Shown here one piece after another: positions 20,839-22,745 of a DNA stretch of 49,673 nucleotides (position 1 is its first letter; each line of letters starts with the position of its first letter). Origin of the DNA: a virus (Duplodnaviria > Heunggongvirae > Uroviricota > Caudoviricetes); IMG/VR virus record IMGVR_UViG_2778261214_000022, positions 1-49,673 of that record; one strand, written 5' to 3'. The notes beneath the pieces were generated by a model that did not search any database, was not told the DNA's origin, and was given only the letters and a program-made list of their open reading frames with translations. A program made the translations under genes and the position numbers.

Positions 20839-20976
20839 ATGGAAGATTTGCCGGTGGCGAAAGAGGGCCATGTTTTTAACCTTAGTCGCAGAGTTACGGA
20901 GTGCAACTACGAATGCTGCCGGTATATGGCTGAATGGCGTTTCAATGATGTACGTCATCTTATCTGTAAATGTTAA
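20839..20976 (+). CDS. Small Cys-rich protein (tentative)
   Basis: 45 aa with 5 Cys; AGGGGA RBS. Confidence 0.3.
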   Translation: MEDLPVAKEGHVFNLSRRVTECNYECCRYMAEWRFNDVRHLICKC

Positions 20977-21031
20977 TGATAAATGCTCTCCACTGGCTGC
21001 TGTTAGTTTTTTATTCATAAAGCGAGGTTGT

Positions 21032-21820
21032 ATGAGCGAAAAATTGAATATTGTCTATCGACTGTTACAAGAGTTGTCTCCGTATGTGCACAATGCAAGG
21101 ACACACTCTCCTGAACAGGTGACACAGCTGGTTGAAAGCATTAAGCAATTCGGCTGGACAAATCCGGTGCTGATTGATGAAAAGGGTGAAATTATTGCGG
21201 GGCACGGGCGTGTTATGGCGGCTGAGGCGCTCAAAATGGATTCGGTTCCGGTCATTGTTCTGTCTGGTCTGACGGATGATCAGAAAAAGGCGTACCGCCT
21301 GGCTGATAATCGCCTGCCGATGAGTGCTGGCTGGGATGAAGATCTGTTACGGATGGAGCTGTCGGACCTAATCAATGCTGATTTTGATATCTCCCTGACA
21401 GGATTCTGCCCGACAGAAATTGACGAACTATTAACGGATGTTTTGCCAGGTACAGCGAATGAGGATGAGCCGTACACGACGAAAATTGATACGCCTGTTT
21501 ATGAGCCGTCAGGGGATGAACCGGATATCAGTGAACTGTACGACGATACGAAAACTCAGGAGCTGGTCAGCCGGATACGTACGGCGTCCCTTGAGCCTGA
21601 TATCGAAAAATTCCTCCTGTGCGCGGCAGAACGCCACACGGTGTTTAATTTCAGCAGAATTGCAGACTATTACGCTCACGCCCCCGCTGAAATTCAGGGC
21701 CTTTTTGAGGAGTCGGCACTGGTGATCATTGATTATCAGCAAGCCATCGAAAATGGTTTTGTCCGGATGACGCAGCGCATGGTGGAGATCATGCATGGCG
21801 GGGAGGAGGAATATGCGTGA
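21032..21820 (+). CDS. ParB-like nuclease domain protein
   Basis: 262 aa from MSEKLNIVYR; N-terminal ParB/Srx-like motif (PVLIDEKGEIIAGHGRVMAA); C-terminal ~150 aa unrecognised. Confidence 0.75.
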   Translation: MSEKLNIVYRLLQELSPYVHNARTHSPEQVTQLVESIKQFGWTNPVLIDEKGEIIAGHGRVMAAEALKMDSVPVIVLSGLTDDQKKAYRLADNRLPMSAGWDEDLLRMELSDLINADFDISLTGFCPTEIDELLTDVLPGTANEDEPYTTKIDTPVYEPSGDEPDISELYDDTKTQELVSRIRTASLEPDIEKFLLCAAERHTVFNFSRIADYYAHAPAEIQGLFEESALVIIDYQQAIENGFVRMTQRMVEIMHGGEEEYA

Positions 21821-22745
21821 TGATTTTTGCGCCTTTATTCTGACTCACGGGCGACCGGACAAAGTTCTGACTTACCGGACGTTGCGTCGTGCTGGCTATA
21901 CCGGGAAAATTTTTATCGTTGTTGATGATGAAGATAAGACACGGCATCAGTACATAGCTGAATTTGGTGAACAGGTGCTGGTGTTTTCCAAAGCCGATAT
22001 CGCCAGTCGTTTTGACGAAGCCGATAATTTCGGTGACCGCCGCTCAATTTTTTACGCCCGTAATGCCTGTTTCGACCTGGCAAAAATGGTCGGGTGTAAA
22101 TACTTCATTCAGCTCGATGATGATTATCACGAGTTCCAGTTTCGGGTGGATCGCAACTATGACCAGGCCTATTTCCCGATAAGGAAACTGGATGCGATCC
22201 TTTCTGAAATGCTGGCGTATTACGAATCAATACCCGCGCTTTCCATCGCTATGTCGCAGGGCGGGGATTTTCTTGGTGACAATGGCGGCCATGCTTCGTG
22301 GGTGAAACGCAAGGCAATGAACAGCTTTATCTGTTCGGTTGATCGACCGTTCTCATTCATGGGGCGCATTAACGAGGATGTGAATACGTACACGAATCTC
22401 GGTCGCTGTGGTGAATTGTTTATGACGATCGGTGCTGTCCAGTTAGGGCAGAAACAGACGCAGAAAAACAGCGGCGGAATGACCGAGCTGTATCTGGATT
22501 CCGGAACCTACGTTAAAAGTTTTTACTCCGTCATGTATGCGCCCTCGTGCGTAAAAATCTCACTGATGGGGGCCAGCCATAAACGCATTCACCATCAGGT
22601 CACCTGGAACAACGCTGCAGTAAAAATCCTTCACGAAAAATACAGGAAGAAGACACCCTGCATATCAATGGGGGTGACAAATGATTCCGTATTCGAAAGT
22701 CGAGTCTCTGGCAGCGTGCCGGATGACTGCACAACAAATCGCTGA
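21813..22745 (+). CDS. Hypothetical protein, GT-A (nucleotide-sugar transferase)-like fold suspected
   Basis: 310 aa; GGAGGAGG RBS; N-terminal ILTHGRPDKVLTYRTL ... KIFIVVDDED and QLDDDYHEF (DXD-like); no TM segments. Confidence 0.5.
   Translation: MRDDFCAFILTHGRPDKVLTYRTLRRAGYTGKIFIVVDDEDKTRHQYIAEFGEQVLVFSKADIASRFDEADNFGDRRSIFYARNACFDLAKMVGCKYFIQLDDDYHEFQFRVDRNYDQAYFPIRKLDAILSEMLAYYESIPALSIAMSQGGDFLGDNGGHASWVKRKAMNSFICSVDRPFSFMGRINEDVNTYTNLGRCGELFMTIGAVQLGQKQTQKNSGGMTELYLDSGTYVKSFYSVMYAPSCVKISLMGASHKRIHHQVTWNNAAVKILHEKYRKKTPCISMGVTNDSVFESRVSGSVPDDCTTNR

Follow-up and report, generated by a model that had tools for sequence, protein, structure and literature searches.

What do two overlapping genes, one for a ParB-like protein and one for a glycosyltransferase-like protein, do directly in front of the terminase genes of a temperate phage? 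This question is raised by IMG/VR virus record IMGVR_UViG_2778261214_000022, a 49,673-nt stretch of DNA (the window, to which coordinates refer unless another sequence is named) that is a Rac-like lambdoid Escherichia coli prophage. The first gene (21032-21820, plus strand) encodes a protein of 262 amino acids (aa) with an isoelectric point (pI) of 4.4, in which a ParB-type nucleotide-binding domain (NBD), a helical segment, an acidic disordered linker and a conserved C-terminal domain follow one another; we call this protein the partner. The second gene (21813-22745, plus strand) encodes a 310-aa glycosyltransferase of the TAGT family with a GT-A fold. We found that the C-terminal region of the partner is a domain dedicated to TAGT, to which the ParB part is added in some phages and other elements in others. 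We tentatively read the pair as a two-component glycosyltransferase that a clamp-type module would keep on DNA and that would modify phage DNA late in infection, a reading to which we give a probability of roughly 45%.

The transferase and its partner domain

The 310-aa protein matches the profile PF20691 of TAGT, the 'TET-associated glycosyltransferase' family of Pfam, with 121.6 bits (cut-off 27.5; E value 5.5e-35), its residues 8-222 aligning with positions 4-205 of 205, and it also matches phrog_842 (9e-103). Newer runs of the Prokaryotic Genome Annotation Pipeline (PGAP) name it 'GREB1-related protein', and its N-terminus, MRDDFC, is common to the homologues. The AlphaFold2 (AF2) model has a predicted template modelling score of 0.71 and a GT-A fold, with residues 1-215 at high confidence, and the top Protein Data Bank (PDB) matches that Foldseek returned for it are all GT-A enzymes. 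An initial annotation of the window, made from the letters alone, had read a GT-A-like fold and a DDD motif in this protein and had put forward a profile search as a check; the search led to a transferase family, and the motif lies at residues 102-104 (codons 22116-22124, plus strand) as the DxD motif that binds the metal and the nucleoside diphosphate (NDP)-sugar. The same annotation had remarked that the membrane helices of GtrB-type enzymes are missing. Indeed, no transmembrane segment was found in the transferase, where the maximum Kyte-Doolittle mean over 19 residues is 1.08, and no hydrophobic segment was found in either protein.

R14, D102-D103-D104 and D189 are invariant both in an alignment of closer relatives (A4) and in one that spans several phyla (A2), as are D68, R83, K167, H260 and H261; E188 is invariant in the former but not in the latter. 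The motif set R...DDD...ED[YF] has been described for phage GT-A DNA glycosyltransferases and for JGT (bioRxiv 10.1101/2023.12.21.572611), and the residue after ED in the window transferase is V, not Y or F. With the R...DDD...ED motifs intact, the enzyme looks catalytically competent from its sequence. Both genes are under purifying selection, with a nonsynonymous divergence (dN) of 0.14-0.5, a synonymous divergence (dS) that is saturated in most pairs, and a dN/dS of ~0.08 where it is computable, which is to be taken as a bound only. The conserved core of the transferase comprises residues 1-285, most homologues being ~285-290 aa long; the last ~25 residues are unconserved, and the unconserved tail (residues 291-310, 22683-22745) overlaps the next open reading frame (ORF) in another frame. 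The conserved C-terminal segment of TAGT is basic (pI 9.7) and could provide the DNA contact that the acidic partner lacks. The PADLOC defence-system models gave no match for the transferase, and tblastn searches from it and from an Aeromonas (Aeh1) relative did not reach the T2/T6 enzymes. We also considered PRYEPK, in the N-terminal extension of the Aeh1 TAGT, as an enzyme-fused form of the partner motif described below; this candidate was dropped because PRYEPK is absent in the related PTm1, Kuja and Vibrio proteins.

The transferase gene is tightly linked to the partner gene. Its ATG at 21813 overlaps the end of the partner gene, whose stop TGA is at 21818-21820, so that the two share the 8-nt sequence ATGCGTGA (21813-21820, plus strand), and GGAGGAGG (21802-21809, plus strand) lies just upstream of the ATG. 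We therefore take the two genes to be translationally coupled, as the initial annotation had proposed. Overlapping or abutting junctions between partner and TAGT genes recur in other phages.

To follow the pairing, we scanned every retrieved locus with hidden Markov models of our own for TAGT, the NBD and the C-terminal region. The partner domain was encoded directly upstream in 96 of 96 loci found through TAGT. Conversely, with the partner domain as the starting point, TAGT was on the same strand in 78 of 78 viral loci, abutting it in 72, and it stood beside the partner domain in 76 of the 77 species-representative genomes with enough flank. These counts also bear out the conservation of the gene pair across phages, which had been put forward as a check. 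A profile search of 1.84 billion representative proteins returned 1,399 clusters with the partner domain; among the 150 best listed, the domain is nearly always C-terminal, in proteins of ~133-170 or ~240-310 aa. When residues 140-262 alone were used for the search, many ~133-aa proteins made up of the partner region only were retrieved. The initial annotation had called the C-terminal region unrecognised, and residues ~137-262 indeed have no Pfam or NCBIfam match, but the annotation missed that this region is the conserved, dedicated partner domain of TAGT.

The conserved unit is ~110 aa long and consists of a linker motif and the C-terminal domain. The linker (residues ~137-169; 21440-21538, plus strand) is acidic and predicted to be disordered, with a predicted local distance difference test score (pLDDT) below 50 in the AF2 model. 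It holds the near-invariant sequence Y-[TS]-x-K-[IV]-x-x-P-x-Y-E-P, in which Y148, P155, Y157 and P159 are invariant or nearly so. The C-terminal domain (residues ~170-250, followed by a short tail; 21539-21817, plus strand) is predicted to be of alpha/beta type and is marked by ...FLxxAAxRHxVFxFxxIAxYYAH...SALVIID..AIxNGF. The AF2 confidence for this domain is modest (pLDDT 54-81, and below 50 beyond residue 230), and the Foldseek matches of the partner are driven by the NBD. Across phyla, the C-terminal part of the partner is better conserved than the ParB domain (alignment A1).

The N-terminal part of the partner, residues ~1-100 (21032-21331, plus strand), is a ParB/Srx NBD according to PF02195, Foldseek and phmmer. 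ParB_N PF02195 is matched with 28.4 bits against a cut-off of 26.3, the protein matches phrog_620 (2.9e-86), and PGAP names it 'ParB/Srx family N-terminal domain-containing protein', of the ynaK family. With the AF2 model of the partner, Foldseek returned Noc, ParB, PadC, KorB and sulfiredoxin (Srx) structures. In phmmer alignments to 4umk, 1vz0 and 6sdk, N21-A22-R23 corresponds to the QPR box, G57-H58-G59-R60 to GERR and D92-N93 to the EN of ENxxR; AGHGR is aligned with AGERR of ParB/Spo0J, and LADN with LVEN. The GHGR motif had been read as ParB/Srx-type in the initial annotation, and this reading stands. The accompanying label 'ParB-like nuclease' does not, as no nuclease feature was found. 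R23, R60 and N93 are kept, the positions of the catalytic Gln and Glu of ParB CTPases are occupied by N21 and H58, and N21, G57 and N93 are invariant in alignment A1. TIGR00180 gave 35.4 bits, below its cut-off of 58.45, and no Pfam match to a ParB C-terminal dimerisation domain was found in the partner.

The NBD is followed by a helical segment (residues ~101-136; 21332-21439, plus strand) with the pattern WDxxLLxxEL...LTGFxxxEIDxLL, for which the AF2 model has helices at 103-134. Residues 4-142 of the partner match phrog_498, 'DNA methyltransferase' (5.6e-49), and residues 13-146 match the PADLOC model MTase_II (5.7e-37). Judged by these matches, the NBD and the helical segment together are the same module as the N-terminus of phage DNA methyltransferases. 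In a genome-wide screen, overexpression of the truncated K-12 ynaK, a remnant of the ParB NBD, raised the minimum inhibitory concentrations of six antibiotics (PMC12924614), which may be unrelated to the intact module.

In other phages, the partner domain stands alone. On three contigs (L014-L016), which belong to PolA/DnaB-type phages, the gene of a stand-alone partner lies directly upstream of TAGT and overlaps it, and the module sits among replication genes. Two of the three have a second TAGT paralogue and an adjacent β-clamp homologue (L014 5001-8098; L015 4150-7333). L014 also encodes a fused histidine-phosphatase/cytidylyltransferase-like enzyme; the two TAGT paralogues, and this enzyme in L014, suggest elaboration of a longer glycan or a phospho-sugar. 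L016 contains, at 3868-4614, a 248-aa C5-cytosine methyltransferase homologue ~400 nt upstream of the stand-alone partner and TAGT, with no recognisable dioxygenase nearby.

The stand-alone partners carry a short motif of their own. Qxx[LIMVF]F, typically as MKQxNLFGE, was found in the first 14 residues of 61 of 91 full-length stand-alone partners, and many of the remaining ones have xLFG or xLFD. It was found at none of 13,277 other positions and in none of the 195 ParB-fused proteins (102 NBD-fused representatives and 93 ParB-like full-length homologues). Hda binds the β clamp through a QLSLF-type peptide at its N-terminus (PMC5397184). The motif of the stand-alone partners has the form and position of such a bacterial β-clamp-binding motif, from which we infer clamp binding. 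A few stand-alone partners end in a Lys-rich tail in place of this motif, and in one protein two ParB NBDs follow each other. The ParB part is thus an interchangeable add-on to the partner domain. The ParB NBD, the clamp-binding-like peptide and the basic tail are all DNA-associated devices, which suggests that DNA is where the transferase acts. In the literature searched, we found no description of the obligate partner domain, of its stand-alone form with a clamp-like motif or of the mutual exclusivity of this motif with the ParB module. The bare adjacency of ParB and TAGT may already be in the work of Iyer et al. 2013 (NAR 41:7635), which, as far as it is known to us through citing papers, is said to have defined TAGT and to have proposed that ParB directs modification enzymes.

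The arrangement seen in the window, overlapping ParB-like and TAGT genes just upstream of the terminase, is present in metagenomic phages with Terminase_4/TerL_ATPase, GpA-type and other terminases. It is also present in Lactobacillus phages phi jlb1 and c5 (in c5 as ORF1-ORF2, right after cos), Nocardia phage NTR1, a Porphyromonas phage and the haloarchaeal virus HHTV-2. Across these phages, TAGT mostly shares 38-65% identity, with 26% in the Porphyromonas phage, and the partner shares 24-48%. Viruses with the pair infect Proteobacteria, Firmicutes, Actinobacteria, Bacteroidota and a haloarchaeon, and the partner domain occurs in species genomes of Bacteroidota, Clostridia, several proteobacterial classes, Verrucomicrobia, Acidobacteria, lineages of the candidate phyla radiation and others. 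Among complete E. coli genomes, 1,248 of 5,426 (23%) have the gene pair and 77% are without it. For the stand-alone type, the commonest conserved neighbour is the large terminase subunit (TerL), in 39 of 78 loci and ~2.3 kb downstream, and the next ones, which serve replication or recombination, are DnaB, DnaA-C helix-turn-helix (HTH), ERF, YqaJ, PDDEXK and NinG.

Broken copies are found as well. Many E. coli database entries are fusions in which 60-80% of TAGT or the ParB-like protein, counted from the N-terminus, is joined to tail-fibre, Lom/Ail, NlpC/P60 or terminase domains; these fusions look like deletion scars of defective prophages, as in K-12 Rac with its surviving ynaK fragment. Among Lactobacillus delbrueckii phages, the module is intact in c5 and phiLdb and split in two in Ld17 and LL-Ku; Ld25A retains a remnant of 45 aa. 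Loss of the module is therefore not lethal to the phage.

Candidate targets of the pair

What would such a pair act on? If it works on DNA, the 310-aa protein would be the catalytic subunit, a GT-A enzyme dependent on Mn2+ and an NDP-sugar, and the C-terminal domain of the partner together with the Y-T-x-K...P-x-Y-E-P peptide would bind or activate it. The ParB NBD and the helical segment would place or activate the enzyme on double-stranded DNA, after the manner of the ParB-like activators of phage thymine dioxygenases, and in other phages the clamp-binding-like N-terminal motif, in place of the ParB module, would tether it to the replication clamp. The pair would be transcribed with the late genes. 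Its position after the lysis genes and before the terminase argues for late expression, and hence for action on phage DNA that has already been replicated and is about to be, or is being, packaged; this would plausibly protect it from nucleases in the next host. We infer complex formation, clamp binding, the DNA substrate and the protective role, as well as the late timing, the last from gene position. An earlier proposal that ParB proteins direct modification machinery during packaging is cited in PMC8256090.

DNA as the target fits the membership in TAGT, of which the characterised phage and trypanosome members glycosylate DNA bases, and the high conservation of the pair, from the hosts in Archaea to those in Firmicutes, speaks for a substrate that is universal, as DNA is. 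The initial annotation had raised the possibility of a DNA modification or another nucleotide-directed activity; this suggestion agrees with the family membership and with the methyltransferase-type NBD module, but not with the absence of the usual 5-hydroxymethylcytosine (5hmC) or 5-hydroxymethyluracil (5hmU) acceptor pathway.

This absence is the first of several points that weigh against the DNA-directed reading. No enzyme making 5hmC or 5hmU accompanies the pair. A TET/JBP dioxygenase, a thymidylate-synthase-type hydroxymethylase and a first-step glucosyltransferase were all lacking in the prophage, as judged from the PGAP annotation of two near-identical prophages, and in the complete 31.8-kb genome of the lytic phage c5. 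They were also lacking in the flanks of the stand-alone loci L014-L016, where unknown neighbours were scanned with Pfam, and among the 32 most recurrent neighbour families of 78 loci, for which the flanks covered up to 10 kb per side (1,555 neighbour ORFs were clustered, and 20 cluster representatives were Pfam-scanned). To our knowledge, every characterised TAGT-family enzyme transfers its sugar onto a hydroxyl group. The canonical DNA bases are without a hydroxyl; therefore, a DNA target needs either chemistry unprecedented for the family or an unrecognised acceptor. Consequently, the module does without the acceptor bases on which all characterised DNA-modifying members of the family act. 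In this it has company, as solitary phage TAGT/GT-A genes without a 5hmC/5hmU pathway, their function left open, were reported in 288 of 753 phage genomes (PMC13216743), and ~65% of glycosyltransferase-containing contigs are likewise without the pathway (bioRxiv 10.1101/2023.12.21.572611).

The other adverse points concern the partner and the phages themselves. No HTH or other DNA-binding domain was recognised in the partner by Pfam, and the protein is acidic. The catalytic Glu and Gln of the ParB CTPases are replaced by His and Asn, and R60, the arginine of GxxR, is lost in the orthologues of Nocardia phage NTR1 and the Porphyromonas phage. The clamp-binding motif of the stand-alone partners is a resemblance in sequence only. 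Finally, no report of modified DNA in any phage with the pair was found in the literature searched.

If the sugar were placed directly on a canonical base or on an acceptor other than a hydroxymethylpyrimidine, this would be an undescribed DNA modification, made by an enzyme on a ParB-type or β-clamp tether. Temperate phages of bacteria and archaea would commonly have it, among them the prophages of about one in four sequenced E. coli, and it would have stayed unseen because the genes are silent in lysogens. We regard this extended claim as doubtful. Should DNA be the target, ordinary temperate phages would turn out to possess a new type of base modification and an anti-restriction function of a new class, and the thymine dioxygenases would be joined by a second DNA-modifying enzyme that has a ParB-fold protein as its cofactor. 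Should the target be a protein, viruses of prokaryotes would for the first time show a counterpart of GREB1-type protein glycosylation. The puzzle of the orphan TAGT genes has become tractable through an E. coli prophage model, present in 23% of complete genomes, with an obligate partner domain.

A protein target is suggested by GREB1, a TAGT-domain protein that O-GlcNAcylates estrogen receptor alpha (PMC7968844), which is a further point against DNA. The sugar would then be attached to a protein hydroxyl, either on Y148, T149 or Y157 of the partner itself, in a glycogenin-like manner, or on another phage or host protein, in a GREB1-like manner, and the ParB or clamp module would only set the location of the glycoprotein. 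The known family members all use hydroxyl acceptors, the partner has invariant Tyr/Thr residues in a disordered, accessible segment, and no hydroxymethylpyrimidine pathway was found; a self-contained pair of enzyme and acceptor would also explain the conservation across host phyla. However, an invariant short peptide is equally expected of a docking or activating element, and glycogenin, which is among the Foldseek structural matches, matches no better than many other GT-A enzymes. Moreover, the alternative N-terminal modules (ParB NBD, clamp-like motif and Lys-rich tail) all point to DNA, and the module of NBD and helices is otherwise joined to DNA methyltransferases. We consider protein glycosylation unlikely.

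The pair might instead be a packaging accessory, in which the ParB-like protein helps the terminase to recognise or organise DNA in a complex near pac or cos and the transferase is either a passenger without a related function or an enzyme with a packaging component as its substrate. The pair is directly upstream of the terminase in most loci, with several terminase types, it comes right after cos in c5, and even for the stand-alone type TerL is the commonest conserved neighbour (39/78); furthermore, ParB near modification genes was linked to packaging by earlier authors (PMC8256090). Nevertheless, the module moves between unrelated terminase systems and so is unmatched to any one packaging machine, and in PolA/DnaB-type phages it lies in the replication region. 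The ParB part is dispensable in many phages, while the transferase and the partner domain are never separated, and the partner has no HTH or parS-type DNA-binding domain. In addition, most lambdoid phages package without the pair, which 77% of complete E. coli genomes lack. A packaging role therefore has a poor chance in our judgement.

An equally poor one is given to the view that the pair is the tail end of a hypermodification pathway dependent on 5mYOX or ThyS, inert here or in need of 5hmC/5hmU from another phage or from the host. Pfam defines TAGT by its association with TET/JBP, the genes most often found next to phage 5mYOX genes are those of glycosyltransferases, ParBs and terminases (PMC13229309), and one stand-alone locus has a C5-methyltransferase 400 nt upstream. 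Were the pair a remnant, one would not expect both genes to be under purifying selection and every catalytic residue to be intact, nor the pair to be found in 1,248 of 5,426 complete E. coli genomes. The pair is also kept in complete small phage genomes without an oxidase or a hydroxymethylase, and neither enzyme is among the recurrent neighbours in the 78 loci with up to 10 kb flanks.

Lysogenic conversion, that is, TarP- or Gtr-like decoration of a cell-envelope glycan that alters phage or immune recognition, is hardly credible: this is done by prophage GT-A enzymes, one of which, TarP, is also a top PDB match for phage GT-A DNA glycosyltransferases (bioRxiv 10.1101/2023.12.21.572611), but the window enzyme is soluble without a membrane segment, is encoded in a late operon between lysis and terminase genes rather than beside the attachment site, is coupled to a ParB-fold or clamp-motif protein, and is 40-65% identical across Gram-negative, Gram-positive and archaeal viruses that share no envelope polymer.

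The prophage around the gene pair

A 2.3-kb query around the gene pair is 100% identical to strain C5 (NZ_CP010122) and 99.9% identical to OkiPb01716. In the near-identical prophages, the PGAP order is intR/xisR, ralR, recET, kilR, ydaS/T, replication, nin-type region, two tRNAs, holin and endolysin, the gene pair, the small terminase subunit (TerS), TerL, portal, and head and tail genes. The pair is thus the last unit before the packaging genes, a placement that recurs with four different terminase types in other phages. Its position beside the terminase, as given in the initial annotation, is correct, with a small ORF in between: a 69-aa HTH ORF (22723-22932 in PGAP and 22681-22932 in the ORF list, plus strand), which matches part of the TerS family phrog_309, is followed by TerS (22936-24027, plus strand; Terminase_2, phrog_51) and TerL (24017-25345, plus strand; Terminase_6N). 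At the portal position of locus L001, PGAP labels a gene (24665-26101 there) 'anti-CBASS protein Acb1 family protein', likely an annotation artefact. In strain C5, PGAP calls the ParB-like gene (20333-20590) a pseudogene 'missing C-terminus', although the query there is 100% identical to the intact ORF of the window. This call is probably an artefact of annotation in which the 87-aa ynaK remnant of K-12 served as the model.

Upstream of the pair, the similarity of most relatives starts at about window position 20991. The small Cys-rich ORF that the initial annotation had placed before the pair does exist (20839-20976; 45 aa, 6 Cys), but it is no member of the unit: it is unannotated by PGAP, has no family match and was found in 1 of 80 related pair-bearing loci. 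Two copies of AAATAAAAAACCGG (20679-20692 and 20813-20826) are located in the intergenic region upstream of the pair, and each reads, on the minus strand, as a short CCGG-containing hairpin followed by a T-run, as in a terminator. An 84-aa minus-strand ORF (20764-21018) lies between the copies, in a region that is not conserved in most relatives.

We searched with Rfam and found no RNA element in or beside the gene pair. Across the window, the search identified RalA, SraC/RyeA-SdsR/RyeB and two tRNAs. The SraC/RyeA-SdsR/RyeB small RNA (sRNA) pair is at 463-607 on both strands, at the left edge and just before the integrase gene, which suggests that the left prophage border is near the ryeA/ryeB locus. 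RalA, the antitoxin sRNA of the RalR/RalA type I toxin-antitoxin system, is at 2169-2347, and these RNAs together mark the prophage as Rac-like. The two tRNA genes (17701-17851), annotated by PGAP as tRNA-Thr and tRNA-Gly in the near-identical prophages, are between the Q-like antiterminator region and the holin gene. A match to sRNA-Xcc1 (41139-41224, minus strand; 70.9 bits against a gathering score of 53) lies inside the tail/moron region, close to an antA/antB-type antirepressor gene and an LprI-family gene, which interrupt the baseplate genes.

Comparison with known systems

The system differs clearly from the seroconversion enzymes of GtrB type, as it has no hydrophobic segment, no Glycos_transf_2 match and no gtrA or gtrC nearby. 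The partner resembles the CTP-dependent clamps ParB, Noc and KorB in the N-terminal fold, and the window protein keeps the phosphate-binding GxxR arginine, the QPR-box arginine and the ENxxR asparagine, but it is without an HTH, a ParA partner, a parS site and a lysine-rich dimerisation domain, has His for the catalytic Glu and Asn for the Gln, and is strongly acidic; no parA is annotated by PGAP in the prophage. The partner therefore has the fold of ParB CTPases and is not a partition ParB.

The TAGT family includes the T2/T6 beta-glucosyl-HMC-alpha-glucosyltransferase, which adds a second glucose to glucosyl-hmC (PMC13216743), the trypanosome base-J glucosyltransferase JGT, and the GT-A enzymes of phage pathways through 5-methylcytosine and 5hmC (bioRxiv 10.1101/2023.12.21.572611). 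The window transferase is like these in its significant profile match, GT-A fold, R...DDD...ED motifs, phage origin and solubility. In contrast to them, its clade has no enzyme that makes 5hmC, 5hmU or glucosyl-hmC and is tied instead to the ~110-aa partner domain.

For the stand-alone partners with a clamp-like motif, the closest functional analogy is the T4 alpha-glucosyltransferase, which co-purifies with the gp45 sliding clamp (PMC13216743), a case of clamp recruitment of a DNA glycosyltransferase. The T4 enzyme is of GT-B type, binds the clamp itself and acts on 5hmC that is made before replication, whereas in the present system clamp binding is predicted from sequence and is assigned to a separate adaptor, and the window partner itself has a ParB NBD in its place.

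A closer parallel to the window partner is offered by the ParB-like proteins that are required for cognate phage thymine dioxygenases to work on double-stranded DNA (5mYOX176/ParB176; O'Toole et al., PNAS 2026; PMC13229309). Both are small ParB-fold proteins encoded beside a DNA-modifying enzyme, often near the terminase. Their plan is also alike by description, with an NBD, a helical segment, a disordered linker of ~50 aa, a C-terminal domain and no DNA-binding domain; in the AF2 model of the partner, the NBD comprises residues 1-100, the helices 103-134, the disordered region 137-169 and the helical and strand-containing C-terminal domain 170-254. Mutations in the NTP site of ParB176-type proteins did not abolish function (PMC13229309), so the residues of this site are not strictly needed in that system, and they are variably conserved in the family of the window partner. 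The difference lies in the client, which is a glycosyltransferase here and a dioxygenase there: no 5-methylpyrimidine dioxygenase was found next to the partner within the window, where the neighbour is TAGT. Moreover, the C-terminal domain of the partner also exists without the ParB part.

Finally, the fusions of a ParB N-terminal domain to DNA methyltransferases in phages (phrog_498, PADLOC MTase_II), which are enriched in prophages (Kaljevic et al. 2025, PMC12704722), share the NBD and the helical segment with the window partner. In these fusions the module is attached to the catalytic domain, whereas in the window it is attached to an adaptor domain; there, a separate protein, whose gene is translationally coupled to that of the adaptor, is the catalytic subunit.

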